Translations under genes and position numbers: made by a program
Notes under the pieces: model-generated
Database searches by the model: none
The model's input: only the letters and a program-made list of their open reading frames with translations
Told to the model about the DNA's origin: nothing
Shown here: in pieces, positions 9,122 through 55,652 of the stretch
Position numbering within the stretch: the first letter of the stretch is position 1
Layout: each line of letters begins with the position of its first letter
Source of the DNA: an uncultured Oscillospiraceae bacterium
GTDB lineage: Bacteria; Bacillota; Clostridia; Oscillospirales; Oscillospiraceae
Assembly (NCBI GenBank): GCA_964514175.1
Contig: CAZEPQ010000001.1
Coordinates: 1 to 56,067, forward strand
Direction: 5' to 3'
DNA: 56,067 nt

Positions 9122-10024
9122 TTATGCAATACAGGTATACATGGAGTAAGGCGGTCTGGGATCGCCGGAAATCGTCAGGAAATGGTCCTCAATGATTTCC
9201 TCCAGGAAGATCTTTGCCTTGGCGATATCGCGGGGGGTGGGGCGACGCTCAAAGTCGTAGTGCCACATTCTGCAGCCGGGTCTGCCGCAACCCAGAGGGT
9301 CATTGTCCCCCATCATGCGGAAGCCTTCTCCGAAGCTGTCTTCATCTTTGGTGCCGGAGAGCTTTTTCAGCATGCGGAGCTGCTGCTTATCGTACACTTT
9401 GAATTCCTCTGCATCGGGATTCTCTTTAAAGCGTTGCATGAGTGCCTGTGCCTGATCGATGTTGATATTCAGCTTCTCTGCCAGATTGTCCACGGACTCA
9501 TGACGGAGCTCCTTGCCGGGGCAGGCGAATTTGCCAACTGTGCGGACACCGTTGACACGCATGTGCTCCACCAGAACCTCAATGGCCCCGATAACTTCCG
9601 CAGGGCCAACACCACTGCCGCCGTAGGTAGCAAAAACCACACCGTACAGGGTTTTGCAGAATTCGCCCTTGGCGCCGGGAGCAGAATAGCCCTGAGGGGG
9701 CGCCACGACACCGGGGATTCCGGGACCCATTTCCGGCGGCTTGCTGCTTTTCATGTTCTCAAGACCACATAGCCACTTTGTGCCCTGAAGACCCATGACT
9801 TCGTTAACTTCTTTATAGGGCAGTCCGGCAATGACAGGACTGCCAAGCAGGACTAGGTCATAATCTCGGATAAAGACAGGATCCTGGTCCCAGTCCCGGC
9901 TGGGCTCGATTTTCACCAGATCTGTTTCAAAGCCGTAATCGATACAGACTTCCTGAAAGGCCTTAGCGATTAACTCAGTATTTCCGGTGATGGAGCCATA
10001 CAATACCAGTGCTTTTTTGCTCAT
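9122..10024 (-). CDS. long flavodoxin-like protein, paralog F1 (300 aa)
   Basis: N-terminal ALVLYGSITGNTE is a flavodoxin FMN phosphate loop. YGGSGVG...VNGVRTVGKFACPGKE core. A Gly/Pro-rich insert and a ~100 aa C-terminal extension ending DPRPPYSMYTCIA. AAGGAG RBS. Confidence 0.7.
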   Translation of the reverse strand: MSKKALVLYGSITGNTELIAKAFQEVCIDYGFETDLVKIEPSRDWDQDPVFIRDYDLVLLGSPVIAGLPYKEVNEVMGLQGTKWLCGLENMKSSKPPEMGPGIPGVVAPPQGYSAPGAKGEFCKTLYGVVFATYGGSGVGPAEVIGAIEVLVEHMRVNGVRTVGKFACPGKELRHESVDNLAEKLNINIDQAQALMQRFKENPDAEEFKVYDKQQLRMLKKLSGTKDEDSFGEGFRMMGDNDPLGCGRPGCRMWHYDFERRPTPRDIAKAKIFLEEIIEDHFLTISGDPRPPYSMYTCIA

Positions 10025-10085
10025 AATAACTCCTTTTTAAAATCGGGAGTGCTGCATTTACAGCACTCCCGATGATTGTGTTAGA

Positions 10086-11861
10086 TCATCTTGCAAGGAA
10101 ACGGTCGTAAGCGTCCTGATAAATCTGGACGATGTCTTCCAGCCCCATTTCCACAAGCTGCTGACGGAATGCATCGTATTCGTCCATGCTGTTGGCACCG
10201 GTGATGAACTTCAGAATGTTCTCGGTGAGCATAGTGCTGATATCGCTGAACACTGCTGCATAGGTGTCGCTTTCCTCAGAGGTCAGAGAAACGAAATCCA
10301 CCGGGTAGGAATAGTTCTCTTCGATTGCAACATTCCATGCGTCGGCGAACGCCTGCTCCTGCTCAGTGAAGGTGTCCACATAGCGGGTGTAGTCTTCCAT
10401 GAAGGCGCCATACTGGAGGGTGTAGATATACACAGCGTTATCCATGGTCATGCCTTCGGCGTTATTGGTAATCACGTCGGTGAAATGAGGGACACCGTCG
10501 GCATCATAGGTAAAGGATACATCCTCCACACCGTAGTTGGCGAGCAGAGAACCGGCGGGGGAGAAGAAGTAGTCCAGGCAGGTGAGCAGGGACTCAAGCT
10601 CCTCGGCAGTAGCGGAAACAGTCCAGTGGTTTACTGCTGCCAGAGCCTGACCGCCTTCATAATCGAAGTCGTAGGCCTGACCGAAGTGGAGGGCGTCGCC
10701 CTCGTTGATAACAGGCTGGGGAGCGGGAGAAAGCTGGAATCCTTCGGTAGCGGACTGCTCATTGTAGGTACTCAGCATGGAGGAAGCGGAGTAGAAGTAA
10801 CCGGTTTCGCCGTTGATAATAGACTGGGTGCACATCTGGAACATGGAGATGCTCTCAATGTCCTGCACGATGAGACCCTCGCTATACCACTGGGACAGCA
10901 TGGTGAGATAATCCACATACTCATCCTCCAGCATAGCAAAGCGAACCTCGCCATCCACCACGTACAGGGGGAGGCTGACCTTGGGGTCGGTGGTCATATA
11001 ACCGTTAATGCCATAGCCCCAACCGAAGGAGCCCATGGACCAGGTGCCGGAGTTGTTCAGAAGCATGGGGGAAACAGCGCCCTTTTCACTCTTGAAGGCG
11101 GCTAACACATCATGGACCTCCTCATAGGTGGAGGGGATCTCAAGGTTCAGCTCGTCCAGCCAGTCCTGACGGATCATCATGCCTTCGCCGGCGGAGTTGT
11201 TTGTACGGATCATGTACAGTGCGGCGACATAGCCCTCGTCAGTGGTCAGAGCCTTCTTGATCATTTCATTGGTATTGATAGCGGTCATATAGTTCTGGCA
11301 GGAATCCATGTAATCCATAAAGTTTACAAAGATCTCGTCCTCAATGGCAGAGGTAACGCTGCCATTGTAATAACTCAGACCGTTGTCGGTGATGTCAGGG
11401 ATATCGCCGGCAGCCAGCAGCAGATTGAAATTTTCGGCTGCGGCGGAGGGATGGGAGTTGTTAAACTCTACCTGGATTCCAGTGCGACTCGTCCATTCCT
11501 GGATGACCTGATTGTCCTCGTATCCGTCAATAAAGCTGGATACGCCGGGGTTCAGACCCACGAGGAAGGTGTAGGTGGGGGAGTCTGTGATAATGGGGAG
11601 CTCATAATCGAACAGAGCAGGGATTTCCTCCACCGGGGTCTCCTCAGCAGGAGTCTCTTCGGCGGAAGACTCTTCGGCAGGTGCTTCCACGGCGGGCTCT
11701 TCCACGGCAGGCGCTTCCTCAGTAGCCTCCTGGGTGGAGACCTCAGCATCTGCAGCAGACTCAGCAGACGTGGAGCTTTCTGAAACAGTCTGACTACCGC
11801 AAGCGGCAAAACTGAAGATCAGAACGGCTGCCAGAAGCAGAGCTAGAATTCTGGATTTCAT
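10086..11861 (-). CDS. large extracellular solute-binding lipoprotein (ABC family-1), orphan
   Basis: MKSRILALLLAAVLIFSFAACGS lipobox, a ~60 aa acidic Glu/Ala/Pro linker, 591 aa. AAGGAGG RBS. Confidence 0.85.
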   Translation of the reverse strand: MKSRILALLLAAVLIFSFAACGSQTVSESSTSAESAADAEVSTQEATEEAPAVEEPAVEAPAEESSAEETPAEETPVEEIPALFDYELPIITDSPTYTFLVGLNPGVSSFIDGYEDNQVIQEWTSRTGIQVEFNNSHPSAAAENFNLLLAAGDIPDITDNGLSYYNGSVTSAIEDEIFVNFMDYMDSCQNYMTAINTNEMIKKALTTDEGYVAALYMIRTNNSAGEGMMIRQDWLDELNLEIPSTYEEVHDVLAAFKSEKGAVSPMLLNNSGTWSMGSFGWGYGINGYMTTDPKVSLPLYVVDGEVRFAMLEDEYVDYLTMLSQWYSEGLIVQDIESISMFQMCTQSIINGETGYFYSASSMLSTYNEQSATEGFQLSPAPQPVINEGDALHFGQAYDFDYEGGQALAAVNHWTVSATAEELESLLTCLDYFFSPAGSLLANYGVEDVSFTYDADGVPHFTDVITNNAEGMTMDNAVYIYTLQYGAFMEDYTRYVDTFTEQEQAFADAWNVAIEENYSYPVDFVSLTSEESDTYAAVFSDISTMLTENILKFITGANSMDEYDAFRQQLVEMGLEDIVQIYQDAYDRFLAR

Positions 11862-11910: not shown

Positions 11911-13398
11911 TCAAAGCGACGAGATATACTCTGCCGCGTTTTCTCCGGCCATAAAGCTGGAGTTCAAAGCCCAGGTCAACGATGTCATGCCCAGCCAACC
12001 CAGTTCGCTACACCAACCGCTGGCACTGTCGCCGGAGGCGTAAAGGCCGGGGATCGGTGTACGCCAGTCGTCCCGGATGACCTGCATCTTCTCGTCAATG
12101 GAGATGCCACCATGGGTACACTGATTAAACCTCATCATTTTCATGGCATAGAAGGGTGCGGTTTTGACCGGGCAGCGAAGATACTGGGGATCCTTGTACA
12201 TCTCTTCATCAACGCCGTTTTCGCAGTAGCGGTTGTAGTTGTCCAATGTGGTCTTCAGCACCTTGGAATCACAGCCGATAAAGGCGGCGAGTTCCTCAAT
12301 GGTTTCTGCACGGCAAATTCCGTTGACCTTCTTCATGCCGTGGAAATCCGTAGAGCCGGCAGCGATGGTTTCCTCCAAGTCCTTGCGGAGGGTAACCATG
12401 CGAGGGATCTCCTTCTCGTTGGGGACATAGCGCTTGTTGAGACGAAGCTCCTCCACGAGGGGTTCAATGGCGGCATCATCAAAGATTGCATAGCAGGTGG
12501 CATCAGGCTGATTGGCAGCGGCGAAATAACCATCATTGCCCAAAACCTCGGGCATGAATCTACGGCCCATCTTGTTTACTACAACGGAAAGGGGATTCAG
12601 CGCAGCCTCGCTGATACTCATGGGGCCGTGATGCGAGGGACCACCCACGACAATATCCACATGGGGATCCGGCCTGGAGCCTGCAGCCAGAGCCATTTTG
12701 ATTCCGTCACCGGTATAGGTGTGGAAGTTGATATCCATCTCCCAAGGCTTCTCCGGATCAAAGAATCTTGCACAGTATTTTTTCTTCATCTCACTGTCAT
12801 CACAGAAGCCGCCAGCAGCAATGATTACTGCCTTGGCCTCAATGGACAGCTCCTCACCATCCTTTGTGGTGGCGGTGGCACCAATGACTGTGCCATTCTC
12901 GTCCTGAATCAGAGTTTTTGCCGGGGTTTCCAGCAGGATCTGAATACCGCGCTCTTTTGCCTGTGCAGTGACCTCGTCAATAATTGCGTCGCCCATATTC
13001 TCGGTCTTTTTGCTGTTGCGCTTGACGTAGCCGTTCTTCAGCAGGAAACAGCGGTCACGCTCCGGGACAATGTCTGCAACGATACCCTTGGACTCCACCC
13101 ATTCCATAAAACGGCCAGATACCTCAACAAAAGCGCGAACCACGTGGGCATCTGCGGCCCAGCCGGACTTTTCCATAATCTCTGTGAAGAGAACACCCTT
13201 TGTGTGGTAGCAGTTCATTTCCTTCTGGCGTTTTGTCTCCACAGCACTGACGCCGCAGGCCATGACGCTGACACCGCCGACACGCTTCTGCTTTTCCAGA
13301 ACAACAATGTCATTCACGCCGCACTCGCTGGCCCTCAGCGCGCCGATAAGTCCGGCTCCGGCGCCGATGACCAGAAGATCTGTCTTCATCGTTTTCAT
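11911..13398 (-). CDS. FAD-dependent oxidoreductase (FAD_binding_2: fumarate reductase / 3-ketosteroid dehydrogenase / urocanate reductase type)
   Basis: DLLVIGAGAGLIGALRASECGVNDIVVLEK dinucleotide fold and C-terminal PIPGLYASGDSASGW flavin motif. 495 aa with no signal peptide. GGAGG RBS. Confidence 0.8.
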   Translation of the reverse strand: MKTMKTDLLVIGAGAGLIGALRASECGVNDIVVLEKQKRVGGVSVMACGVSAVETKRQKEMNCYHTKGVLFTEIMEKSGWAADAHVVRAFVEVSGRFMEWVESKGIVADIVPERDRCFLLKNGYVKRNSKKTENMGDAIIDEVTAQAKERGIQILLETPAKTLIQDENGTVIGATATTKDGEELSIEAKAVIIAAGGFCDDSEMKKKYCARFFDPEKPWEMDINFHTYTGDGIKMALAAGSRPDPHVDIVVGGPSHHGPMSISEAALNPLSVVVNKMGRRFMPEVLGNDGYFAAANQPDATCYAIFDDAAIEPLVEELRLNKRYVPNEKEIPRMVTLRKDLEETIAAGSTDFHGMKKVNGICRAETIEELAAFIGCDSKVLKTTLDNYNRYCENGVDEEMYKDPQYLRCPVKTAPFYAMKMMRFNQCTHGGISIDEKMQVIRDDWRTPIPGLYASGDSASGWCSELGWLGMTSLTWALNSSFMAGENAAEYISSL

Positions 13399-13431: not shown

Positions 13432-15477
13432 TTATGGCAGGATCATTAGGTTTCCACAATAGGTTTTACCGGGAGTGATCTCAACGGCAGTACCGTCCAC
13501 ATACATTTTGCCGTTGATCTTACAGTCCGCACCGAGCTCCAGACGGCTGAGGTAGGATACCTTCGTGGGACTCCATGTGCTCTTGTTCTCCAGAACAAGG
13601 ATCATTCCGTTGCTTACTGTGGGCGCAGGCTCCGCCGCGACATTACCAATTTCGTAGTAAGTGTCCTGTGTGATTTGCTGGCCCGGGGCAACGTTGATAT
13701 GGAACTGTGTCGCGGAAGAAATGCAGCCGTGAATCTGAACCGCATCGCCATGTACGCACAGATTTTGGCCGACCTTCCAACGGGAGTTATAAATGTCCCC
13801 CTGCAATGCCATGTCTGCAAACCGGACGTGCAGGGTGTATTCGGCGTCCGGATCAGAGACGTCCAGATCGGTTTTTACAGGGATCACCTCAGGAATCGTG
13901 AAGCCTGTGAGATTTGGATTACCTGCATCGTCACTTTCCATCAGGTGCAGCAGTACGCCATTTTCGCTGGAAAGCTTTGCACCGGAAGCCTGAATCCTTG
14001 TGGTGACCTCTTTCCCGGGCATGCTCTTGATCAGGAATACTGCCTGCCCGCTGTGAAACTCGGTTCCGGGTTCAAGGGTACAGTGGCCGCCCTGATTGCT
14101 GTGAATAAGGACTGCATTTTTTCGGGCATGAATCACTGTGGGAGCGTTGCGGCGATCCTCCGGGATTTCCGGATAGAGCTTGCCTGTATTTTCTTCGCTA
14201 GCAGGACCGAAGGTGCTTCCACAGAAGCCGCCGCCGATGACAACACCGTAGCTGGGAACAGTGATGGTTGTTCCGTAGAAGTAATCCTCCACACCCATAT
14301 CGCAATAGGCACCGTAGCCGCTTTCTCCGGTGATTGTGGCGGTTGTGTTGATGCAGGTCAGCTTTGATCCACGCCAGGAACCGTCGGTGGATAAAGCACC
14401 CCAGTTTTCGCTGAAAATATCGCAGTTGAGATATGTGCCGTTTGCCCATTCCAGCAGATTTGTGGTACGAAGATTTCCTTTGAGTCCCAGCGGCCAGGGG
14501 ACCTTGTTCATAACACCCACCGGGAAATCCGTGGTTGGGCCATCGTGGCCGTGGATCGTTACATTCTTTATCAGTGCGCTACAGTGACCACCAAGCCAGA
14601 TACCGGTACGGATAGAGCCAATGGTGTCAATCCGGGCGCCGTCTACGATGACTTCAGAGTCTCCGGTGACCATGATGCCAGCACCGTAGCCCGCAAAGTC
14701 GTCTCCGCCGTGACCATCCAAATCCAGCGTGGTGTTTTTTAATTCATATCTGGAGTTGTCGATTACGATGGGATTGAAGTAATCGTTGTGGGAGTGTATG
14801 ACCAAATTCTGGGACTGATCTGCATCGAATCTACCGTCGCAAATTGCCGCATTGACAGAACTACTTCCCACCTTTCCGTCCTGGATACAAAGGGCGGTCC
14901 GGGCCTCATACATATCAAACATGTGTGTAATCTCGTAGCTGGGGACAACAGAGAAACAGACATTTCCGGTGTAGGTTTTCCCGGCCTCAATCCGGGTTTC
15001 GATGCCGTCAACCGTCAGCGTTACCTGCTTGCCGGCAGGGGCAGCAATAAAGTGATTCTCCGGAACGGTATACCGATCACAGCAGAAAGAATCCTGCAGC
15101 AGAATCAGCCCCTGCTTCTGCATTTCGTCATAGCAAATTCCGGCGGCTTCATCCCGGGTCATTTCCCCTTGTGGCATGCGAAATTCTGGCAGAAGCAGCC
15201 GGACGGCAGCTTCCATGGCGGGGATGTCGGCAGGGGCTTCCGGAGCAAACTGATACGCCTCTCCTGCTTTGATCGCAGAGATCAACTTGAAATTGTACAG
15301 GAACCTGGCAGCCTCTTTGTTTTTGATCTGCGGATAGTCCTTGAGCACGTCTAGCTTTGCCGGCGGTACCGGCGGAGCGCCGGGCGGAATCATGGGACCG
15401 TCTCCCATAACGCCGCATCCGCCTGCGGCAAAGAGCATTGCGGCGCGGAGTATACGAAACAATCGTTTTTTCTTCAT
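13432..15477 (-). CDS. secreted/lipoprotein-like parallel beta-helix repeat protein, paralog P1 (681 aa), function unknown
   Basis: N-terminal MKKKRLFRILRAAMLFAAGGCG is a signal with a weak lipobox. Periodic Gly/Asn/Thr-rich ~22-25 aa repeats. LDGHGGDDFAGYGAGIMV motif is shared with the protein at 38788-40245. AAGGAGG RBS. Confidence 0.55.
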   Translation of the reverse strand: MKKKRLFRILRAAMLFAAGGCGVMGDGPMIPPGAPPVPPAKLDVLKDYPQIKNKEAARFLYNFKLISAIKAGEAYQFAPEAPADIPAMEAAVRLLLPEFRMPQGEMTRDEAAGICYDEMQKQGLILLQDSFCCDRYTVPENHFIAAPAGKQVTLTVDGIETRIEAGKTYTGNVCFSVVPSYEITHMFDMYEARTALCIQDGKVGSSSVNAAICDGRFDADQSQNLVIHSHNDYFNPIVIDNSRYELKNTTLDLDGHGGDDFAGYGAGIMVTGDSEVIVDGARIDTIGSIRTGIWLGGHCSALIKNVTIHGHDGPTTDFPVGVMNKVPWPLGLKGNLRTTNLLEWANGTYLNCDIFSENWGALSTDGSWRGSKLTCINTTATITGESGYGAYCDMGVEDYFYGTTITVPSYGVVIGGGFCGSTFGPASEENTGKLYPEIPEDRRNAPTVIHARKNAVLIHSNQGGHCTLEPGTEFHSGQAVFLIKSMPGKEVTTRIQASGAKLSSENGVLLHLMESDDAGNPNLTGFTIPEVIPVKTDLDVSDPDAEYTLHVRFADMALQGDIYNSRWKVGQNLCVHGDAVQIHGCISSATQFHINVAPGQQITQDTYYEIGNVAAEPAPTVSNGMILVLENKSTWSPTKVSYLSRLELGADCKINGKMYVDGTAVEITPGKTYCGNLMILP

Positions 15478-15596
15478 TATAGTCCTCCTTTTAATTTAAT
15501 TATAGCAAACCCTGTTTCATTTGTATTTGTTCTGTGATACAATAATTAAGGAGAATCCGATAAATTATTGTGACCGCAGACCAAGGAGGGGTAGGG

Positions 15597-16793
15597 ATGC
15601 TGAAAGAGAAGCAACTGGCGCTGTACCGCGCACTAAACTTTGAAAACCTCGAACAGCTTTTGACCTGCGCAAAAGAAAACTTTGATGACAGCGTGTATAT
15701 ATTGGACGGAAATCTAAACCCGCTTCTGGCAAGTCAGATTCTGGCCATAGAGCAAGATCGACCTCTGATCCGAAAACTGCATCCCCTGGACAGAATGTCC
15801 CCGCATCAGCCCGTTGTGGAAACTGACCGGGATGGACGGAAATGGATCATTGGCGCGGTATATCGGCAGAGCATTCCGGTGATCATTGTTGCGGCCTATC
15901 GATGTGATAGCTGGGACAAGGATTGTCTTCCGCTTTGCCATACCCTACTTGAAACGTTGGATCTGTGGCTTTCGGCGCAAAGTCCGAGGAATATGCTGTA
16001 CAGAAGGACAAGCAGTGTGTATATTAATTTCTTCACAGAGCTTCTGTATGAGAAAATCGTCAATCGGGACCTGCTACATCAGCGACTGCAGCAGATGTCC
16101 TTCACGCCTCCGGAAGAATTCTGTATCATGCTGATTGACTTTCAGGCCCATGAGACTATGGATGTCTCCTCTGCCCTTGCGGCTGAATTTGTAACGGAGC
16201 TGCTGGATTGTCCCATGTTCTGTTTTCACAACAATAACTTGATATTCCTGGTGGATACCACCACAAAAGCCCCGTGGAGAGATGAAATTGAGAAAGATCT
16301 GAGTATGCGTCTGTCCCGCTTCGGGCTGCAAGCCAGTTGCAGCCTCAGCTGTACCGATCTGTTCCTGATTCCAAATGCCTTTTCAGATGCCCAACGGACA
16401 CTGGATCTGGGACGCCGTCTGCGACCGGAGGTGGAACTGTACTTTGCTGCAAGATACATGACATACGTTATGTTGGATTTGGCCTCGCAGCAGTTGACCA
16501 TCACAAAGAGTATCAACCCTGCTATGCTGACGATTCTGGAATATGATCGGAAACATGGAACCAATCTTATGATGACGCTGTATGCCTATCTCAGACATAT
16601 GCGCAATCCCGAAGCAGCGGCCAGACAACTAAAAATACATAAGAACACGTTCTATTACAGAATGGGGATCATCAGGCAGTTTCTGGATGCTCCCTCTCTG
16701 GATGACGGAGAGATGATCATGCAGCTGATGATGTCTTTCCACATTATGTTTTTCAACGGTATGATCTCTCCACTGCCAGATTCCAATATTTGA
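15597..16793 (+). CDS. PucR/CdaR-family transcriptional regulator
   Basis: C-terminal PucR-type HTH LYAYLRHMRNPEAAARQLKIHKNTFYYRMGIIRQFL. AGGAGG sits upstream of the ATG at 15597. Divergent from the beta-helix operon. Confidence 0.75.
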   Translation: MLKEKQLALYRALNFENLEQLLTCAKENFDDSVYILDGNLNPLLASQILAIEQDRPLIRKLHPLDRMSPHQPVVETDRDGRKWIIGAVYRQSIPVIIVAAYRCDSWDKDCLPLCHTLLETLDLWLSAQSPRNMLYRRTSSVYINFFTELLYEKIVNRDLLHQRLQQMSFTPPEEFCIMLIDFQAHETMDVSSALAAEFVTELLDCPMFCFHNNNLIFLVDTTTKAPWRDEIEKDLSMRLSRFGLQASCSLSCTDLFLIPNAFSDAQRTLDLGRRLRPEVELYFAARYMTYVMLDLASQQLTITKSINPAMLTILEYDRKHGTNLMMTLYAYLRHMRNPEAAARQLKIHKNTFYYRMGIIRQFLDAPSLDDGEMIMQLMMSFHIMFFNGMISPLPDSNI

Positions 16794-19490: not shown

Positions 19491-19504
19491 ATTCTCGTCC
19501 TTTC

Positions 19505-19541
19505 TGAAAATCCCCTCCGGGATTTGTATTCCCGGAGGGGA
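19505..19541 (-). terminator. intra-operon hairpin (partial terminator/attenuator) between the binding-protein and OYE1 genes
   Basis: 11-bp stem tcccctccggg / cccggagggga followed on the minus strand by TTTT. Confidence 0.5.
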
Positions 19542-19553
19542 CCGTTTCAACGA

Positions 19554-21299: not shown

Positions 21300-21322
21300 T
21301 AACAATTCCTCCATTCCTTAAT

Positions 21323-22219: not shown

Positions 22220-22232
22220 TTCGTTCCCTCCC

Positions 22233-42841: not shown

Positions 42842-42843
42842 AC

Positions 42844-44522: not shown

Positions 44523-44543
44523 CGAAAGAAAGGAGACCTGCAA

Positions 44544-47246: not shown

Positions 47247-47405
47247 ACAATCAGACGCAACAAAGAATTTGCATCAGTGGTAGATTCTTTTTGCATTTGT
47301 GGTACAATAATACCGTGAAGAAGTATACCGCCTGGCATACTTTTATATTTTGTGTCTCTGAGAACGGCCCCGTCGTTCCCAAAGAAAAGGAAGGAGAACG
47401 AGGTA

Positions 47406-47831
47406 ATGTATGAAATCGAAAAGGTAATTCACGCCGGGATCAGCGTTTACAACATGCAGCAGAGCCTTGCGTGGTACGCCGATAATCTGGGGTTTCAGTT
47501 GCTCAGGGACGACGGCTTTATCCCCCCGCTGGAAGCACATATATGTTTTTTGGAGAAAGACGGTTTTCAGATTGAACTGTTTGAGTACAAGACCCCCAAA
47601 CCGCTGCCCACGGATCGCCTCATGCCAAATTCAGACCTGCAGACAGTCGGTACAAAGCATATCGCCTTTTCCGTAAAAGGCATGGATGAATTAAAAAGCA
47701 AGCTGGTACAGAACGGTACCGAAATTGCACTGGAAACAGAGATGAACGGCACGCGTGTGCTATTCATCCGGGACTGTAACGGCGTGCTGATCGAGCTTCT
47801 GGAACCTCCCCAGGAAGAAGTCACCCTGTAA
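47406..47831 (+). CDS. VOC / glyoxalase-bleomycin-resistance-dioxygenase superfamily protein
   Basis: 141 aa. IHAGISVYNMQQSLAWYADNLGF...HICFL...GFQIELFE...GTKHIAFSV...NGVLIELLE shows the paired beta-alpha-beta-beta-beta pattern. GGAGAA RBS before the ATG at 47406. Confidence 0.8.
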   Translation: MYEIEKVIHAGISVYNMQQSLAWYADNLGFQLLRDDGFIPPLEAHICFLEKDGFQIELFEYKTPKPLPTDRLMPNSDLQTVGTKHIAFSVKGMDELKSKLVQNGTEIALETEMNGTRVLFIRDCNGVLIELLEPPQEEVTL

Positions 47832-48209: not shown

Positions 48210-49517
48210 TCAAATATATCCCAGCTTTTTCGCTTCAAACCGCAATTCATCCCGGAACGCCGGGTGGGCAATCTGGATCAACTGCATAGCTCGTTCCTTC
48301 ACCGTGCGGCCACGCATATATGCCACACCGTACTCGGTGATGATGATATCCGCAATATTCCGGGAAATGGTCACCACAGAACCGGGTGTCAGGATGGGCT
48401 TGATCTTGGAGATCGTCCCGCTCTTAGCCGTGGATGCAATGGCAATGATTCCCCGGCCTCCTTTGGAGTGCTGCGCACCGTATGCAAAGTCAAAAGCACC
48501 ACCGGTACCGGAATACTGCTTCGGGCCCATTGTCTCTGAGCAGATCTGTCCAGTCAGGTCAATTTCCATAGCAGTATTGATGGAAACCATGTTATCGATG
48601 CGGGAAATTACGAAGGGATCGTTGGTATAGCTGGCCTGCCGAAACCAGGTTTGGGGATTGGAAGACATGATGCGGTAAAGCTTTTCATCCCCAAGAATGA
48701 AGTTGCCCACATGCTTTCCAGTGTCTATATTCTTTCTGGCACCGGTAATAACACCCGCCTCGATCAGATCGCCCATGACCGGCGTGAACAGCTCTGTGTG
48801 CAGGCCCAGATCGTGCTTATCAAAGAAGGAGTTACCCACGGCATCCGGCATGCCTCCCAGCCCCAACTGAATGCAATCTCCATCGTGAACAAACTCTGCG
48901 GCGTAAGCGCCAATTTGCAGATCTATCGCACTGGGCGTGCTTCGCACGTTGTAGATGGTGGCAGGATAATCTGCCTCTACGATCAGATCTACATTCTCCA
49001 GCGGAATCTCCAGCGCACCGGGGAACCGGGGCAGATTGGGACTAACCTCTAGTATCACCGTTTCTGCGTGAAGATAGGCGTCTTCCTCCCACATGCCACT
49101 GCCGGAGATTGAGAAATCTCCGTTTTCGTCCATAGGTGTAGCCGCGGCGATAAATTTGTGAACGATAGGCTTGTAGTCCGTTCTCCGCCGCATCATGTCA
49201 TGGAGGTTAGAGGGAAGATGAGATGCAATCCCCATCTCATGGCACCTGCGCAGTGCTCCGTCGTAGAGGTGGCAGACCAGATTCAGGCGCCCCTTCAACT
49301 CCGGCATCTCCATAAAGGGATAAACGTATCCGCTGCCCCGTTTTCCTTTAACAAGCTCAATGTCCTGCAGCTTCGGTGCAACCCGGTGAAAATTCTCGTA
49401 GAACAACTGCGGCTCACAGAGCTCGCCGCCTCCGCAGATTACATCCCCGTCCTGTAACAGGGCAAGCATGTCTTCCACAGTACCAGTTTTATTTATATAT
49501 TCTTTCTGCAAATCCAC
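48210..49517 (-). CDS. acetyl-CoA hydrolase/transferase family protein (4-hydroxybutyrate / butyryl-CoA:acetate CoA-transferase type)
   Basis: 435 aa. GDCIQLGLGGMPDAV, NTAMEIDLTGQICSE (catalytic Glu region) and SGTGGAFDFAYGA motifs. GTG start with GGAGG 11 nt upstream. Confidence 0.85.
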   Translation of the reverse strand: MDLQKEYINKTGTVEDMLALLQDGDVICGGGELCEPQLFYENFHRVAPKLQDIELVKGKRGSGYVYPFMEMPELKGRLNLVCHLYDGALRRCHEMGIASHLPSNLHDMMRRRTDYKPIVHKFIAAATPMDENGDFSISGSGMWEEDAYLHAETVILEVSPNLPRFPGALEIPLENVDLIVEADYPATIYNVRSTPSAIDLQIGAYAAEFVHDGDCIQLGLGGMPDAVGNSFFDKHDLGLHTELFTPVMGDLIEAGVITGARKNIDTGKHVGNFILGDEKLYRIMSSNPQTWFRQASYTNDPFVISRIDNMVSINTAMEIDLTGQICSETMGPKQYSGTGGAFDFAYGAQHSKGGRGIIAIASTAKSGTISKIKPILTPGSVVTISRNIADIIITEYGVAYMRGRTVKERAMQLIQIAHPAFRDELRFEAKKLGYI

Positions 49518-49785: not shown

Positions 49786-50790
49786 TCAGGGTTTCTTCTT
49801 GGGCTGAGCACCCTTGTTCTCACCCAAACCTACGCAGTAGTGAACCTTCACATCATCCAGCGTAACGAAGGGTTCCGGCCAAGGGGTGGAATCCTGTGCA
49901 GGCTGAACGGGAGACCAGGTCTGGTGGGATGCGGGCAATCTGCCCTGCTTGGGGCCCTCTGCCATCTTGGAATAGGCCTGCCCCTTCTTGGGGGCACTGC
50001 TGGGACCACCAGGAGCACCGCCAGGACCACCAGGAGCACCGCCGGGACCGCCGGGAACACCGCCAGGACCACCTGCTGCACCAGGCGCACCACCAGGACC
50101 GCCGGGAGCACCGCCAGGACCACCGGGAGCACCGCCAGGACCACCTGCTGCACCAGGCGCACCACCAGGACCGCCAGGGCCACCACCATTGCCGCCGGGC
50201 TGGGGACGTCCGCCGCCCTTAAACTTATTGTAGCAGTCAATGGCAAAGTTGGTAACATCCTGTGCACCGCCAGCATCATTGAGCACGCACTCGTGGAGGA
50301 TCTTCCAGAAACCATCCTCACGGACGTAGTCCTCACCGTAACGTTCCAGCATCCAGACAGCCATCTGCTTACCGCTGGTGGAGATACGGCGGTAGAGCAT
50401 ACCGGTGGAGTAGAACAGGGCACGGGCGGTCAAGAGATCCTCGCCAACCTCAACGATGGGAGTACCAATGGCGTGGAGAGAATACTCGGAAAGAGGCAGG
50501 GGATCCATATTCACGGTCTCGGGATACATCTCGTTGAAAACCTCAAACATCCGGCGGCCACCGCCCTCAAGACCATTGGCCCAGTTGGTCATAACTTCGT
50601 CACGGCCATAGTTGCCGGTCATATTGTAGCCCCAGTACAGGTCATCCCGGTACTTGGCCCAGAAAGTTTCGATCTCCTCGGTGGTGTGGCCGGAGGCATG
50701 AAGGATCGCATGCCATGCGTGAACCTTTTCACAGTTCTGACCAGCTTCAATTATGGCCAGCTTTGTCTCTAAATCAATGTTTTTTCTCAT
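49786..50790 (-). CDS. NTF2-like protein, subfamily C, copy 3, with long (GGPGGAP)n repeat
   Basis: AAGGAGGG RBS. VEVGEDLLT, LERYGEDYVREDGFWKILHECV, a ~65 aa Gly/Pro tract, and tail PWPEPFVTLDD. Confidence 0.7.
   Translation of the reverse strand: MRKNIDLETKLAIIEAGQNCEKVHAWHAILHASGHTTEEIETFWAKYRDDLYWGYNMTGNYGRDEVMTNWANGLEGGGRRMFEVFNEMYPETVNMDPLPLSEYSLHAIGTPIVEVGEDLLTARALFYSTGMLYRRISTSGKQMAVWMLERYGEDYVREDGFWKILHECVLNDAGGAQDVTNFAIDCYNKFKGGGRPQPGGNGGGPGGPGGAPGAAGGPGGAPGGPGGAPGGPGGAPGAAGGPGGVPGGPGGAPGGPGGAPGGPSSAPKKGQAYSKMAEGPKQGRLPASHQTWSPVQPAQDSTPWPEPFVTLDDVKVHYCVGLGENKGAQPKKKP
50010..50215 (-). repeat. imperfect tandem coding repeat (72-nt super-period built from 15/21-nt GGPGG / APGGPGG units)
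   Basis: acctgctgcaccaggcgcaccaccaggaccgcc occurs at 50071 and again at 50143. All six reading frames stay open across the tract. Confidence 0.8.
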
Positions 50791-50802
50791 GATGATCCCT
50801 CC

Positions 50803-51570
50803 TTAGCCTTTGTAGCCCGGGTTGCCCTCCAGGCCATTGCTGATGGTATCCGCGAAGGTCGCATGCTCCATGGTAAGCTCCGGATAGGGGAAGTAGTTGT
50901 AGAAAGAGGTATATGCCTCGAACTTCTCCGTGGGCTCGCCAAATTCCTTCTCCAGATACTTGTCGCAGGGAGTAGTCTCCTCGGTCTTCAGAGTGGCATA
51001 GGGGAAGCCGGGACGCAGGGCAAAGTCTGTACCTGCGAAATAGTGCCAGATCTTCCACTGACCATCCTCGTAAACCAGGTCAGCGCCGCAGCGCTGGTTG
51101 TCCCAGTAGCAGTCGGTCTCGGTGTCGTTTGCGGGGTTGATCTCATAACCAATGGAATACCATGTGACCTGAGCGGTCTTGTTATCGTCAGAGATGACGA
51201 TCATATAGGTGGTAAAGGGATGGCAGACATCGGTGCCTACGCCGCCGAAGGGATTGCTGTCCACATAGTACTTACGGATATTCTCAATACCCACATAGTA
51301 GCCCCAGTTACGGCCATAGGAAGCAGTGTCAGCCTGCTCCTTGGTCCACAGGGTATCGATAATCTCAGCGCGACGGTTGGCATGCTCCAGATAAGCCTTT
51401 TTGGAGAGGACCTTCTTTACTTCCTCCACCTGGTAGGCGCGCCAAGCACGAACTTCGGGAGAGAAGTCCTCGGGCTTGGAATTACTGGGCTTCATATGAA
51501 TCATGGACTGGCACTCATATCTGTCATAAGTTCCGCCAAAGGCTTCATGGGTTGTATACTTGAATTCCAT
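50803..51570 (-). CDS. NTF2-like protein, subfamily B, copy 3
   Basis: LWTKEQADTASYGRNWGYYVGIENIRKYYV and EDGQWKIWHYF. GAGGAGG RBS. Confidence 0.7.
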   Translation of the reverse strand: MEFKYTTHEAFGGTYDRYECQSMIHMKPSNSKPEDFSPEVRAWRAYQVEEVKKVLSKKAYLEHANRRAEIIDTLWTKEQADTASYGRNWGYYVGIENIRKYYVDSNPFGGVGTDVCHPFTTYMIVISDDNKTAQVTWYSIGYEINPANDTETDCYWDNQRCGADLVYEDGQWKIWHYFAGTDFALRPGFPYATLKTEETTPCDKYLEKEFGEPTEKFEAYTSFYNYFPYPELTMEHATFADTISNGLEGNPGYKG

Positions 51571-51584
51571 TATTTAGCCTCCTC

Positions 51585-52310
51585 TCAAATACCGTAGCTG
51601 AAGGTCTCAGCCAGGGTGGTGTAAGGAACAGGCATCTGCGGTGGCTCCTGATAAGGCCGATCCACGCTGTATGCCTTATAAACTTCCTTCTGGACATTGG
51701 GAACAGGCTCAGGAATGTCGAAGGCAGCAAACTCTTTCAGCTCGGGATACTTGCTTTCTTCGGTCCAGGGCTCTGCACAGGGATGATCAATATCCACTGC
51801 GTACAGCAGGTTCATGATCTTCCACTCGCCGTCTTCAATAACCAGATCCGCAGCCATGTAACCGATCTTCCAAATACTCAGAGGGCCTCTGGAAGTGACG
51901 CGGGTATCTGCTGCCTGGAACTGCCAGAGCGCCTTGGCACTCTGCATATCCTCGGCTACTTCAATGATGGGAGAGTGCATATCGGTACCTTTGACATAGC
52001 CGGCACCAAACATCTCTTCCTCGGTCTTTCCCTTCACCTTGTCGTGGTCTGCCCACTTTTCCATAACAAGTTTGGTAAGCTTTTTGGCATTCTGAAGTTT
52101 CTGATCGTAGTAGCCCTTTACAGCCTCTGCGCCCTTAAAATAACCATTGTTAAATCCCAGGCACACATCCTCGCTCTTGCTCCAAAACTGGGGAACCAGA
52201 TCATAGTCTGCAAGCATGTCGCAGTGTGCGACTTTACCCACAATATTCTGGACCTCGCGAATGATCAGACAACGGTCTGCCATTTCCTGCGCCGTATACT
52301 GTTTGCTCAA
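51585..52310 (-). CDS. NTF2-like protein, subfamily A, copy 3
   Basis: TTG start at 52310, 7 nt after AAAGGAGGAA. FWSKSEDVCLGFNNGYFKGAEAVKGYY, GPLSIW, EDGEWKIMNLL, and tail PVPYTTLAETFSYGI. The longer ORF-track version (to 52577) has no RBS and would overlap the HxlR gene start. Confidence 0.7.
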   Translation of the reverse strand: MSKQYTAQEMADRCLIIREVQNIVGKVAHCDMLADYDLVPQFWSKSEDVCLGFNNGYFKGAEAVKGYYDQKLQNAKKLTKLVMEKWADHDKVKGKTEEEMFGAGYVKGTDMHSPIIEVAEDMQSAKALWQFQAADTRVTSRGPLSIWKIGYMAADLVIEDGEWKIMNLLYAVDIDHPCAEPWTEESKYPELKEFAAFDIPEPVPNVQKEVYKAYSVDRPYQEPPQMPVPYTTLAETFSYGI

Positions 52311-52551
52311 CGTAATTCCTCCTTTAATAATGTTTTCCGAGACCAAGTGAATCTCGGTCTTTCTATTTCTAAATTTACCTAGAACAAAGGAAAAGGTCAA
52401 GAACGCACATTTTGATGACAATGAGTAGTTTCCCCCATTTTGGGGTGTTTTCCGAACTTTTTGACACATTTGAAAAGAATGTGCGAGAATTGAAAAGCCG
52501 CAAAAAAGGGATATAAAGTATAATTTAATCAGGCAGAAAGGAGGCGTTGAC

Positions 52552-53163
52552 ATGGTCTTTGCACAGAATTCCGGCACACATCCCCATATGGACTCGCTAA
52601 ATGGGAAATGGAAATTGGAGCTTCTGTATCACCTTTCAAGGGGAACTGTCCGCTGGAGCACCCTGACCCACAGCATTCCAAAAGCCGCACCGAACGTACT
52701 GACCCGACAGCTTCGCAAGCTGGAGACAGACGGGCTGGTGCTGCGGATCGTTACCTCTGCCCAACCGCCTCAGGTCATTGAGTATACGCTGTCAGGCCAG
52801 GGACGCCGGCTCGTTCCTATGCTGGAAGCTCTGGCTCGCTGGGACAAAACCTATCACAAAAACACGGAAACCGCTCCGGACTTTTCTGACTGTCAACGTG
52901 TCCTGTCCAGTCGTTGGATGCTACCCATCCTAACGCTACTTTCTGTCCCCCTGCGCTTCGGGAGCATTCAGGCCCATTTTGAAAACCTCTCGCGCGGCGT
53001 ATTAGCCGCCCAACTGGGCGAGCTACGGGATATGGGCTTTGTTTATCAGAAGCGCTATGACATATTCCCACCTCGGGTTGAATACGTTCTGTCAGAAAAA
53101 GGACGTGATTTCCTGGATATCCTACTGCCGAATGCCACAAAAAAGCCTGCCGAAAATGCATAA
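52552..53163 (+). CDS. HxlR-type winged-helix regulator with two tandem HxlR domains
   Basis: First half GKWKLELLYHLSRGTVRWSTL...LTRQLRKLETDGLVLR...VIEYTLSGQG. Second half SRWMLPILTLLSVPLRFGSI...LAAQLGELRDMGFVYQ...RVEYVLSEKG. AAGGAGG RBS. Confidence 0.75.
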   Translation: MVFAQNSGTHPHMDSLNGKWKLELLYHLSRGTVRWSTLTHSIPKAAPNVLTRQLRKLETDGLVLRIVTSAQPPQVIEYTLSGQGRRLVPMLEALARWDKTYHKNTETAPDFSDCQRVLSSRWMLPILTLLSVPLRFGSIQAHFENLSRGVLAAQLGELRDMGFVYQKRYDIFPPRVEYVLSEKGRDFLDILLPNATKKPAENA

Positions 53164-53210: not shown

Positions 53211-54494
53211 TCATTTTTTCTGCCGTAGCTTACCGGGAGCCACTCCCTCCACATTGGTAAACGCACGGTACATGGTAGCCAAGCTACAGTAGCCCACTGC
53301 CTCTGCAATGTCCTGAACGGAATCATTTGTGGTCAGCAGCAATTCTTTGGCCTTCTTAACTCTGGTTCTATGCAGAACATCGTTGATGCTCTCACCAAAG
53401 TATTGCCGGAAGGACTCTGCCGCATCTCTGGGTTTGAGTTTAAATTCTCTTGCCACCGCTGCAATCCCCATGTTCATGTCCGTGGCGTTATTTTCTACAT
53501 ACTTCTTTATATCCCGCATAAGCCGATCGTGTCGCTGCTCCGAACGGAGTTTGGCATGCTCCACCAATCGCTGCGCAATGGTCTCGCTGACCGCAAGGTA
53601 GTCCTTCAAATTGTGCCGGGACACCAGTTCGCGGCTAAAGTCGATCTGGGAAATATATCTCCAATCCGCCAGGTCCTGCTCCGCCAGCCGGTATTGCAGC
53701 AGCGAAATAAACCGGTTGGTAGTGAGATCCAGCGTTGTGGGATAGGGCATGCCAATGCTGTTTTCGGCAATCTTCTGGAGTTGCTCCTGTATGTACTGCT
53801 GTGCAGTCTGAACATCTCCCGCCTGAACACTGCCGCAGATCCGCTCTGTTGACTGGAAGAATGTCTGCTCAAACTGAGAACGCTGTCGAACATCTGAAAG
53901 CTTGTCCAGGGCATTGTCTGGGATCACATAGGCCTGTGGTATCTTATCCACGTAGAAGTTCCGGCTCTTTTCCACATCCTGCAGCATATTGTAGGCGGTC
54001 TCTATTCCCTCAACCATCTCCCATCGGCCACTTACGGTAACGTAGGCCCGGAAGCCCAGCGCTTTCTGGGCATATTGCACTGCCTCACAACACGCCTCCG
54101 TCACCTTCTCATCCTGATCCCCGGTATAGAGAATGCCGAACATGTAGCCCATCAATAGCACCAAAATGCCACCGGGCGTATCCTTCAGCTCCACGACCAA
54201 ATGCTCCCGCAGGGCACTGTACATATTCAGCTGACAGTTGTGTCGATAGCGACCGGACAAGGCTCGGACTCCGGGCTCCGCCAAGGTATACTGCACCACG
54301 CGAAACGCCCTGTCAGGAAGATCAAACCCCAAATATCTCAGCCGATCCTGAATGTCCCTACCCATGGCGCCTGCTCTTAAAAGCAAAGCGCTGATGACAC
54401 CGTAAAGTTCATCCGGGATTGACTGCTGTGCATATGCGCCGACACCGATTATGGACGGATGATCGATATCCTGACACCAGTGTTGAAATTCCAT
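53211..54494 (-). CDS. AraC-family regulator with long receiver-less N-terminal domain (AraC-4)
   Basis: 427 aa. C-terminal HTH pair ...MGIAAVAREFKLKPRDAAESFRQ...VQDIAEAVGYCSLATMYRAFTNV. AGGAGGGGG RBS. Confidence 0.85.
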   Translation of the reverse strand: MEFQHWCQDIDHPSIIGVGAYAQQSIPDELYGVISALLLRAGAMGRDIQDRLRYLGFDLPDRAFRVVQYTLAEPGVRALSGRYRHNCQLNMYSALREHLVVELKDTPGGILVLLMGYMFGILYTGDQDEKVTEACCEAVQYAQKALGFRAYVTVSGRWEMVEGIETAYNMLQDVEKSRNFYVDKIPQAYVIPDNALDKLSDVRQRSQFEQTFFQSTERICGSVQAGDVQTAQQYIQEQLQKIAENSIGMPYPTTLDLTTNRFISLLQYRLAEQDLADWRYISQIDFSRELVSRHNLKDYLAVSETIAQRLVEHAKLRSEQRHDRLMRDIKKYVENNATDMNMGIAAVAREFKLKPRDAAESFRQYFGESINDVLHRTRVKKAKELLLTTNDSVQDIAEAVGYCSLATMYRAFTNVEGVAPGKLRQKK

Positions 54495-54752
54495 AATCCC
54501 CCTCCTGTCCTTATGCGGATAAGCTAGTGCAATTATACCACATTTTCATGAAAACAGATACCATTAATATGTATTTTTTGCAAACAATATGGGCTCCTCA
54601 AATCTCGCTCTGTCTTCTCATTTCCTGCGAAAAGGGGGCATATGCCCATTGTCACCGGTTTGTACCTTCTTGACGGAAGCCCATGATCTGGGGAATAATG
54701 GGGGTGTAATCGGAAACCAAGCGGACTTTCCACACGACAGGAGGAATTTATT

Positions 54753-55652
54753 ATGGCAGAAATCAAACGCTTTAACTTTAATCAGGTAGCAGCAGATCTC
54801 GGCTATGTGGCTGAGCCTACTCCCGGCGGACCCGGCGGTAAGCCCGCAGGCGGTCCTGGTGGTCCTGGCGGCGGTCCTGGCGGTCCTGGCGGTCCTGGCG
54901 GCGGCCCTGGTGGTCCCGGTGGTGCCCCTGGCGGTGGTCCTGGCGGTCCCGGTGGTGCCCCTGGCGGTCCCGGCGGCGGCCCTGGTGGTCCCGGTGGTGC
55001 CCCTGGCGGTGGTCCTGGCGGTGGTCCTGGCGGTCCCGGCGGCAAGCCTGCTGGCGGCGCTCCCAACTTCAGCGACCCCGAGCTTATCCGCAAGAATGCA
55101 CTCCGCTTTAAGGCTATGTGGCCCGATGAGCGGTCCATGAAGCTCATCAACGAGTATTTTGTTGATTACGAGAAGTCCGGCGAACCCATCGACTTCGAAG
55201 GCCACTCCATCTGCTGGGCTATGATCGCACTTCAGCAGAAACTTCTGAAGAATACCGTCTACATGTACATGCCGCCCTTCGGCAAGAGCCTGGATCTTGT
55301 CCCCATGAAGCGTGTAGCTGAGCCTCAGGATAACCCCATGATGAAGTTTGATGTTACAGAGCAGGGCGACGACGTCCGCATTGTTGTAACACTGTTGGGT
55401 GGCGGCAATCCCGATCCCTTCCAGATGCCTCTGAGCGACGTTGAGATCAAGGAAATCGGTTCCGGCAAGAACATCTGGCTGGAACTGGTGGGCGGACACT
55501 TCCTGTTCATGTTTGCTTTCCCCAAGACCTTTGGTGCAGACTGCAACACCATGTACTATAAAGAAGGCGGAGAGACTTGGTACTGCGTAGCTTCCAATAC
55601 CCCGGATGTCAACGTGGGCGACAAGCCTGAAAAGAGTCCCTTTGAGGCATAA
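54753..55652 (+). CDS. hypothetical protein: ~80 aa Gly/Pro repeat N-terminal region plus ~200 aa unknown C-terminal domain
   Basis: AGGAGG RBS. (GGPGG / APGG)n from residue ~24 to ~103, then a non-repetitive domain NFSDPELIRKNALRFKAMWPDERS...WYCVASNTPDVNVG. I recognised no family motif. Confidence 0.6.
   Translation: MAEIKRFNFNQVAADLGYVAEPTPGGPGGKPAGGPGGPGGGPGGPGGPGGGPGGPGGAPGGGPGGPGGAPGGPGGGPGGPGGAPGGGPGGGPGGPGGKPAGGAPNFSDPELIRKNALRFKAMWPDERSMKLINEYFVDYEKSGEPIDFEGHSICWAMIALQQKLLKNTVYMYMPPFGKSLDLVPMKRVAEPQDNPMMKFDVTEQGDDVRIVVTLLGGGNPDPFQMPLSDVEIKEIGSGKNIWLELVGGHFLFMFAFPKTFGADCNTMYYKEGGETWYCVASNTPDVNVGDKPEKSPFEA
54826..55060 (+). repeat. imperfect tandem coding repeat (75-nt super-period)
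   Basis: ggccctggtggtcccggtggtgcccctggcggtggtcctggcggt occurs at 54903 and again at 54978. Open in all frames on both strands. Confidence 0.8.

Follow-up and report, generated by a model that had tools for sequence, protein, structure and literature searches.

What do ten paralogues of one small protein family, packed into some 46 kb of a single bacterial genome, do together? The question is raised by a 56,067-nucleotide (nt) stretch from an uncultured Oscillospiraceae bacterium (GenBank assembly GCA_964514175.1, contig CAZEPQ010000001.1, positions 1 to 56,067; hereafter the window), in which positions 9,122 to 55,652 hold a cluster of genes for NTF2-like proteins, flavin-dependent reductases, flavodoxin-like and beta-helix proteins, and binding lipoproteins. 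Ten copies in so short a space are far beyond chance. We found that they are organised around an obligate triad of three diverged paralogues, A, B and C, an undescribed element for which we found no curated family and no paper. Drawing on residue conservation, predicted structure and gene neighbourhoods, we tentatively read the whole as seven separately regulated cassettes in which a heterotrimeric, cofactor-free triad lyase or dehydratase would work with flavin reductases on plant phenolics, a reading to which we give somewhat less than an even chance.

A conserved triad of NTF2-fold genes

Features of the window were annotated by open reading frame (ORF) listing, scans against Pfam and NCBIfam and direct reading of the translations, and paralogy among window proteins was taken from all-versus-all BLASTP. 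By this comparison the ten NTF2 genes fall into three paralogue classes, A, B and C, plus a singleton, D2, and nine of them make up three A-B-C triads. Identities within the classes are 37-44% (A1/A2/A3), 30-37% (B1/B2/B3), 37% (C1/C2) and 30% (C2/C3), C1 and C3 aligning only locally, over a short stretch within the arm region. The Pfam family SnoaL_4 matches eight of the ten genes; C1 and C2 have no Pfam match and were assigned by paralogy, C2 also by its predicted NTF2 fold. Triad 1 occupies 21323..23743 on the minus strand (A1 23015-23743, B1 22233-23000, C1 21323-22219), with gaps of 13-14 nt between its genes. Triad 2 lies on the plus strand at 42098..45434 together with the fourth paralogue D2 (A2 42098-42841, B2 42838-43617, C2 43614-44522, D2 44544-45434), its three genes joined by 4-nt start/stop overlaps, and triad 3 is again on the minus strand, at 49786..52313 (A3 about 51585-52313, B3 50803-51570, C3 49786-50790).

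For the relatives, an A-type alignment was scanned against one genome per species of the GTDB set, giving 219 confirmed matches, and the best 80 of these 219 were taken as the locus set, which comprises 79 loci in 58 assemblies and underlies all triad counts given here. All 58 assemblies are metagenome-assembled genomes (MAGs) of uncultured organisms, and most bear the label Oscillospiraceae; they derive from rumen, deer and human gut, with Hadza and Nepali samples among the last. Eight loci (L006, L010, L027, L034, L048, L053, L073 and L076, from 'cleanbin' MAGs) carry typical Oscillospiraceae-type triads under Bacteroidaceae, Barnesiella, Prevotella, Bacteroides or Flexilinea titles, which likely reflect mis-binning or mislabelling.

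These loci contain 85 triads, every one of them (85/85) ordered A-B-C on one strand. The A-B and B-C gaps are nearly all between -4 and +19 nt, the commonest being the 4-nt start/stop overlap, a spacing consistent with translational coupling. Across the triads, the pairwise distances within the three classes correlate with one another (r = 0.87-0.90), so the three appear to duplicate and diverge together; a fourth paralogue, D, is found in some loci. The C-type family is small: among 1.84 billion representatives, its profile matched 94 clusters (50% identity) at E<=1e-30 and 860 at E<=1e-3. Relatives, where their sources name them, are called only 'hypothetical protein' or 'nuclear transport factor 2 family protein'. 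The NCBIfam scan, which covered eight of the NTF2 paralogues (A1, A2, B1, B2, C1, C2, C3 and D2), returned no family at E<=0.01, and literature searches on NTF2/SnoaL proteins in Oscillospiraceae or the gut, or in connection with flavonoids or lignans, turned up no pertinent paper.

Fold and putative active site

In the PDB, the A and C profiles match only LdpA (8ABT, 8ABU, 8ABV and 8ABW; E 1.4e-7 and 1.6e-6). LdpA is a cofactorless NTF2-fold lyase that dehydroxylates and deformylates a lignin beta-1 dimer via a quinone methide; it is strictly diastereomer-specific, forms a homotrimer stabilised by a C-terminal arm that rests on the neighbouring subunit, and requires H97, D40, E143, Y35 and Y147 for activity (PMC9942872). 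An AlphaFold2 (AF2) model of C2, with a mean predicted local distance difference test score (pLDDT) of 81.8 and a core above 90, together with Foldseek, predicts an NTF2 fold, an alpha+beta cone, with an extended C-terminal arm (residues 251-302, pLDDT 78-97). The Foldseek search with this model placed LdpA at the top (8ABV, 8ABT; E 1.6e-8), followed by a putative scytalone dehydratase, LinA, BaiE (ranks 14-26) and gallate decarboxylase. The arm carries a motif, P-x-P-Y-x-T-[FLY]...[ST]-Y, that is common to the A, B and C classes.

The HMMER alignment with LdpA, at 18-20% identity, spans the region of H97, E143 and Y147, and on these three residues it places H105, E148 and Y150 of C (C2 numbering), all of them invariant in 83 C sequences. 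The same columns read K/G/F in A and H (64%)/G/I in B. As aligned, only subunit C keeps counterparts of the catalytic His, Glu and Tyr of LdpA. The N-terminal region of C, which is unaligned to LdpA D40 and Y35, contains invariant E21, H27, H31 and E39, and Y29 in at least 90% of sequences. In all, the C family conserves His at positions 27, 31, 54, 105, 166 and 265, five of them strictly invariant and H54 present in at least 90%; His265 sits on the C-terminal arm, within a D-P-G-P-L-H motif. Because this count exceeds what an acid/base dyad needs, a metal site or a site completed in trans is conceivable.

A putative elimination and reduction route for plant phenolics

We propose that the cassettes catabolise related small molecules, each cassette being induced by its own regulator of the AraC, LysR, PucR or HxlR type. 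A, B and C would form one heterotrimer, comparable to the homotrimers of LdpA, LinA and BaiE, with C as the catalytic subunit and A and B as degenerate partners; we infer this arrangement because the three genes co-occur 1:1:1 and are tightly spaced or overlapping, the arm is shared, and the sites of two classes are degenerate. Using acid/base catalysis and no cofactor, the triad would bring about a beta-elimination, or open a ring, by way of an enolate or quinone-methide intermediate, leaving a conjugated C=C that could then be reduced by flavoenzymes of the Fe-S-containing FadH/old yellow enzyme (OYE) type or by a fumarate-reductase-type flavoprotein. In such a route the flavodoxin-like proteins would be likely electron-transfer partners, the compound itself would serve as electron sink, and the lipoprotein substrate-binding proteins (SBPs) and the Opp system would supply the substrates. 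Flavonoid, dihydrochalcone, lignan or lignin-dimer aglycones, or their glycosides, would be the compounds concerned, and we favour this class, plant phenolics, with moderate confidence.

The choice of substrate class draws on the neighbourhoods of the relatives. A gene of the 2,4-diacetylphloroglucinol (DAPG)/phloretin-hydrolase family adjoins a triad in L026, L045, L054, L061 and L062, in L026 alongside an OYE gene as well. In the gut flavonoid route, chalcone isomerase opens the C-ring, after which an Fe-S enoate reductase and then phloretin hydrolase act (PMC7862272), and it is because the DAPG-hydrolase neighbours parallel this route that we lean towards polyphenols. The original prediction had held that the chemistry cannot be read from the sequence; it now appears partly readable, in that C keeps the LdpA-aligned residues and five triads adjoin a phloretin-hydrolase-family gene.

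Several observations weigh against this proposal. The match to LdpA is remote (18-20% identity), and D40 and Y35 lie outside the aligned region. The extra His of C could mean a metal site, not cofactor-free catalysis. No DAPG/phloretin hydrolase gene is present in the window. An OYE gene lies near only 28% of triads and a DAPG hydrolase gene near only 6%, so the reduction coupling and the polyphenol assignment may fit only a subset. TRAP and GntP carboxylate transporters beside some triads suggest acidic substrates.

The main chemical rival is a toolkit resembling the bai system, in which NTF2 dehydratases or isomerases and FadH/OYE-type enone reductases would act on steroids, bile acids or triterpenoid/saponin aglycones. 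BaiCD is the best NCBIfam model for OYE2, but its 417 bits are half the cut-off of 825, and the models for the long form of the bilirubin reductase BilR (370 bits, cut-off 750) and for the mycofactocin OYE (403 bits, cut-off 793) do about equally well. The Foldseek search with C2 did match BaiE structures, yet LdpA, not BaiE, is the sole sequence-level match in the PDB. The FAD protein is weakly matched by 3-ketosteroid dehydrogenase models, and the window holds both a FAD_binding_2 protein and a CoA-transferase, as the bai regulon does; BaiF and BaiK, however, are family III CoA-transferases, whereas the one in the window belongs to family I. Pfam scans of the window found no short-chain dehydrogenase/reductase or hydroxysteroid dehydrogenase, no CoA ligase and no baiB, baiA or baiF-type genes, none of the eight scanned NTF2 paralogues has an NCBIfam match, and the DAPG-hydrolase neighbours favour polyphenols. 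We judge steroid-type chemistry improbable on this balance.

Less improbable, though still doubtful, is that A, B and C are three independent, co-transcribed homo-oligomeric enzymes for successive steps or different stereoisomers, with no heterotrimer. The solved relatives LdpA, LinA and BaiE are all homotrimers, the diastereomer specificity of LdpA implies that stereo-variants could need several enzymes, and some loci have the fourth paralogue D. Against this, of the Glu and His that LdpA cannot do without and that never vary in C, the Glu is missing from A and B, and the His from A as well; 1:1:1 co-occurrence, a fixed order in 85/85 triads and 4-nt overlaps are what would be expected of subunits made in equal amounts; and the same C-terminal arm motif runs through all three classes. 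That the NTF2 proteins are no enzymes at all, and act as ligand-binding or scaffold carriers that hand hydrophobic substrates to the reductases in an assembly tethered by Gly/Pro tracts, we regard as very improbable. Many NTF2-fold proteins merely bind ligands, A and B have no obvious catalytic sets, and the tracts are limited to enzyme-like proteins of the cluster, but C keeps the LdpA-aligned His, Glu and Tyr without change across 83 sequences, most triads have no nearby reductase, and the linker is evidently dispensable, since most C homologues (245-260 amino acids, aa) lack it.

Other leads were set aside. Ring-hydroxylating dioxygenase beta-subunits were rejected, there being no alpha subunit and the hosts being anaerobic. 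Resveratrol reductase has been reported as a separate ene-reductase class, and so lends no support to a link with stilbene reduction.

Neighbourhoods in relatives and the integrity of the cluster

A census within four genes on either side of the 85 triads counted LysR regulators 27 times, SBP_bac_1 lipoproteins 25, FadH/OYE enzymes 24 and Opp genes 21 times, with FAD_binding_2 proteins (10), beta-helix proteins (9) and AraC regulators (8) following. Among the otherwise unassigned same-strand neighbours, the DAPG hydrolase is the sole recurrent enzyme; TRAP and GntP transporters recur, and the rest are housekeeping genes.

The closest relatives hold the same parts in other combinations, in keeping with the 'mix and match' originally proposed. 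In L077, with identities of 77% (A2), 86% (C2) and 91% (C1), AraC3-A2B2C2-SBP3 adjoins AraC1-A1B1C1-SBP2-OYE1, and both D2 and the 17 kb that separate these modules in the window are missing. L002, L006 and L080-L083 show the order AraC / 279-aa / SBP2'-OYE1'-A2'B2'C2'-SBP3', and in L085 the genes Fld2'-BH'-SBP-ferredoxin-Fld3' (the last 91% identical to Fld3) stand beside another triad and an OYE gene. When the cluster is compared across genomes, then, the parts do stay clustered together, but the 46 kb are not inherited as a unit: the closest relatives carry the modules in recombined form. What is conserved as a unit is the A-B-C triad and, less so, the Fld2-BH2 pair, and the supercluster as a whole is peculiar to this genome.

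The 279-aa gene of these relatives (L080, 3681-4520, plus strand) is the first of the SBP-OYE-A-B-C-SBP operon and has no counterpart in the window; its product has no Pfam match and a Rossmann-like N-terminus, VLVVGQGGAAVQAA. A locus without an NTF2 triad, L084 (9464-11613, Saccharofermentanales MAG), contains a BH2 homologue bordered on one side by an Opp system and followed on the other by an Amidohydro_2 gene and, on the opposite strand, a DAPG/phloretin-hydrolase-family gene. Two Opp systems and two 5_nucleotid_C proteins lie around both of these genes, and the whole looks like a polyphenol or aromatic-acid locus.

Base composition along the window gave no sign of an island: G+C is 0.49-0.57 throughout, with no step at 9 kb against the sugar genes. 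The tRNA scan found no tRNA gene, the ORFs of the window that were scanned with Pfam include no integrase or transposase family, and we rejected a mobile island, the window showing no compositional or mobility signal. Scans of the window with Rfam and for tRNAs returned no match.

The sugar genes lie directly upstream, as originally described, with xylA present only as a C-terminal fragment (2..457, plus strand; phmmer against xylose isomerase structures, E 6e-49), which we treat as context outside the cluster. It is followed on the same strand by an FGGY sugar kinase resembling XylB (471..1949; FGGY_N, FGGY_C; likewise context), the operon's own binding protein SBP0 (1966..3678; a 570-aa SBP_bac_1 lipoprotein by Pfam, 28-33% identical to SBP1-3) and two glycoside hydrolase family 3 (GH3) glycosidases (3753-6641 and 6554-8830; Glyco_hydro_3 and Glyco_hydro_3_C in both). 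This GH3/xyl operon and module 1 converge at 8830/9122. The suggestion that the glycosidases release the aglycones on which the cluster acts found no backing beyond adjacency, GH3 genes lying near only 2 of the 85 triads. The sole real link to the sugar operon is the paralogy of SBP0 to SBP1-3, which would fit glycosylated ligands and proves nothing.

Gene map of the seven modules

The inventory of the original prediction, with its 10 NTF2-like, 3 flavodoxin-like, 2 OYE-type and 2 beta-helix genes, 4+1 binding proteins, 1 FAD oxidoreductase and 1 CoA-transferase, was confirmed by Pfam, NCBIfam and BLASTP, and its picture of an expanded paralogous toolkit in regulator-linked modules is borne out. 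The linkage to regulators holds, the count of six modules does not: there are seven, with seven regulators, namely one PucR, four AraC, one LysR and one HxlR-type.

In module 1, a PucR-type regulator (15570..16793, plus strand; HTH_30, GGDEF_2) is divergent from four minus-strand genes, which encode in order the 681-aa beta-helix protein BH1 (13432..15477), a soluble fumarate-reductase-type FAD flavoprotein (11911..13398; FAD_binding_2, Pfam E 1.4e-45), the orphan SBP_bac_1 lipoprotein SBP1 (10086..11861; Pfam and direct reading, lipobox FAAC) and the 300-aa flavodoxin-like Fld1 (9122..10024; Flavodoxin_1, 26.4 bits). Module 2 has AraC1 (23922..25244, plus strand; Pfam) divergent from triad 1, the orphan SBP_bac_1 lipoprotein SBP2 (19554..21314, minus strand; Pfam and direct reading) and the FadH/OYE-type flavoenzyme OYE1 (17502..19550, minus strand, with a probable ATG start near 19490; Pfam, NCBIfam and reading). 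In module 3, AraC2 (28815..30074, plus strand; Pfam) is divergent from the 305-aa flavodoxin-like Fld3 (27706..28623, minus strand; Flavodoxin_3, 29.4 bits), which lies upstream of the FadH/OYE-type Fe-S flavoenzyme OYE2 (25469..27424, minus strand; Oxidored_FMN E 3e-61, Pyr_redox_2 E 5e-29).

Module 4 reads in the opposite direction, its LysR regulator (30189..31091, minus strand; Pfam) being divergent from plus-strand genes for a PanE/ApbA-type NAD(P)H ketoreductase (31151..32197; Pfam and NCBIfam), an Opp-type ABC importer (SBP_bac_5, OppB, OppC, OppD and OppF, 32242..37804; Pfam), the 278-aa flavodoxin-like Fld2 (37817..38653; NCBIfam flavodoxin models at E 7e-6) and the cytoplasmic right-handed beta-helix protein BH2 (38788..40245). 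Module 5 begins with AraC3 (40664..41929; Pfam), followed on the same plus strand by triad 2 with D2, the orphan lipoprotein SBP3 (45474..47177; a paralogue of SBP0-2) and a VOC/glyoxalase-fold protein (47352..47831; Pfam and NCBIfam). In module 6 a 203-aa tandem HxlR-type (MarR/DUF24) regulator (52552..53163, plus strand; HxlR E 1.5e-36 over two matched stretches) is divergent from triad 3, downstream of which lies a family-I CoA-transferase (48210..49517, minus strand; AcetylCoA_hyd_C) that resembles butyryl-CoA:acetate CoA-transferase and scores below the family cut-off. Module 7 pairs AraC4 (53211..54494, minus strand; Pfam) with the divergent 54753 protein (54753..55652, plus strand), whose gene is the first of the module.

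Four long ORFs at 27607-28812 (plus strand) and at 32146-33813, 36605-37777 and 45483-47237 (all minus strand), of 390-584 aa and without family matches, are spurious and run antisense to Fld3, SBP_bac_5, OppD/F and SBP3, respectively; they could deceive a naive gene caller. Between the 54753 gene and the end of the window lie about 400 bases without an ORF.

Reductases, electron-transfer candidates, binding proteins and regulators

OYE2 has the full FadH/OYE family architecture, with an Oxidored_FMN barrel, a Cys cluster (C-x2-C-x3-C-x11-C) and a Pyr_redox_2 domain in that order, and its best PDB matches are 2-naphthoyl-CoA reductase (6QKG) and FadH (1PS9). OYE1, 28% identical to it, has the same domain order with a diverged barrel and a Gly/Pro insert, and scores below OYE2 on the models of named members. 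The divergence is strong over the initial 180 residues of its FMN barrel, and its Cys cluster, C-x2-C-x2-C-x-C-x5-C, is unlike the OYE2/FadH type. The FAD_binding_2 protein is matched best by the NCBIfam model of the vinyl phenol reductase VprA (196 bits, below the cut-off of 600) and, in the PDB, by flavocytochrome c fumarate reductase and urocanate reductase.

The flavodoxin-like proteins are 278-305 aa long, and Fld1, 30% identical to Fld2, has a Gly/Pro insert and a C-terminal extension. Fld1 and Fld3 score at their Pfam cut-offs (26.4 against 25 and 29.4 against 27.5), the match being restricted to the initial 60-80 residues. The FMN phosphate loop reads SITGNT in Fld1 (YGSITGNTE) and SLTGNT in Fld3, and is altered to TMTKNT in Fld2. 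In L085, a gene for a 56-aa 2x[4Fe-4S] ferredoxin (11499-11669, plus strand) lies between an SBP lipoprotein gene and the Fld3 homologue (91% identity), a placement that suggests a role for these long flavodoxin-like proteins in low-potential electron transfer.

BH1 and BH2 are 27% identical, and the N-terminus of BH1 is signal- or lipoprotein-like. The AF2 model of BH2 (pLDDT 90.9) resembles generic beta-helix lyases, glycosidases and adhesins with a TM-score of at most 0.41, and no close relative of BH2 was found in the PDB. Fld2 and BH2 stand paired in L010 and L085 too, and so probably make up a second functional unit.

SBP0-3 share 28-33% identity with one another; SBP0-2 score above the SBP_bac_1 cut-off, and SBP3 belongs to the family by paralogy only. 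SBP1-3 have readable lipoboxes, and an acidic linker can be read directly in the SBP_bac_1 lipoproteins. Pfam scans of the whole window found no CUT1-type permease genes, leaving the SBP_bac_1 lipoproteins without cognate permeases there.

The HxlR-type regulator consists of two tandem winged-helix units, with the redox-responsive RrpA/RrpB models closest and below cut-off, and a similar regulator occurs near the triad in L060. Regulators of the HxlR/DUF24 kind are sensors of formaldehyde or of quinone-type electrophiles, species of the sort that an LdpA-like reaction would release.

Gly/Pro tracts

The scattered Gly/Pro-rich inserts described in the original prediction are real, and are confined to the enzyme-like proteins and the 54753 protein. 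Defined as 20-residue windows with at least 55% Gly+Pro, such tracts occur in the 54753 protein, C1-C3, D2, OYE1, BH1 and BH2, more weakly in Fld1, and in none of the regulators or transporters of the window. C3 has a long (GGPGGAPG)n linker, and the 54753 protein joins a pure (GPGG)n N-terminus of about 95 residues, encoded by 75-nt repeats at 54849-55043, to a 190-aa domain; no part of the protein has a Pfam or NCBIfam match. We read the tracts as lineage-specific, slippage-generated flexible linkers and not as a defining feature, because tandem DNA repeats of 72-75 nt underlie those of C3 and of the 54753 protein, the tract is the sole disordered stretch of the C2 model (pLDDT below 50 at 197-250), and most C homologues lack it.

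Implications and comparison with known systems

Most conversions of polyphenols, lignans and lignin fragments in gut and rumen are without assigned genes, and the Oscillospiraceae that carry the triads are abundant but uncultured. The triad, its conserved residues, the partner reductases and the candidate substrates make up a testable gene set for assigning such conversions, and the window illustrates how, from a few reshuffled parts, a single lineage assembles many substrate-specific cassettes. Should the heterotrimer reading be true, the triad would extend the repertoire of NTF2-fold enzymes to hetero-oligomers. The boldest form of the proposal, which we think unlikely, makes it the first heteromeric NTF2-fold enzyme, in which a single catalytic subunit, C, is flanked by two pseudo-enzyme paralogues, and its members a family of substrate-specific, oxygen-independent C-O/C-C lyases multiplied in uncultured Oscillospiraceae of gut and rumen. 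Triads would then open flavonoid C-rings or cleave lignan or lignin-dimer linkages, their unsaturated products passing to Fe-S ene-reductases as electron sinks, and a major route by which polyphenols are degraded anaerobically would so far have gone unrecognised; the His cluster of C could in that case mean a trans-completed active site or a metal centre new to the fold.

The nearest known system is LdpA, the diarylpropane (erythro-DGPD) gamma-formaldehyde lyase of Novosphingobium and Sphingobium, with which the triad proteins share the NTF2/SnoaL_4 fold, a length of about 250 aa and the long C-terminal arm. LdpA, however, is a single-gene homotrimer of aerobic sphingomonads, whereas here three diverged paralogues always occur together in strictly anaerobic hosts, only one of the three keeps the aligned catalytic residues, and C has extra invariant His. 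LinA and scytalone dehydratase resemble the triad in fold, and their trimeric architecture and His-centred acid/base mechanism offer a further comparison, but they are homotrimers of 150-170 aa and no sequence-level similarity to them was detected.

The bai operon (BaiE 7-alpha-dehydratase, BaiCD, BaiH) offers the same order of events, an NTF2-fold eliminase giving a conjugated enone that an Fe-S flavoenzyme reduces, and OYE2 has the domain architecture of its reductases. BaiE, however, is matched only at the level of fold, and the NTF2 proteins of the window, which occur as triads, exceed in length the BaiE chains matched in the fold search (164-168 residues) by about 80-160 aa. The adjacency of Fld3 and OYE2 recalls the bilirubin reductase BilR and its flavodoxin-like partner BilS, but neither model comes anywhere near its cut-off (BilR 370 bits of the 750 required; BilS E 0.002), and the flavodoxin-like proteins here are twice the length of a flavodoxin, with an insert and a C-terminal extension. 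The flavonoid pathway of Eubacterium ramulus and Flavonifractor likewise brings together an eliminase that opens a ring, an ene-reductase of the Fe-S/FAD type and a hydrolase that acts on a C-C bond; the fold of bacterial chalcone isomerase (PMC9694015) is unrelated to that of the NTF2 proteins, and the functional equivalence that we draw between the two systems is conjectural.

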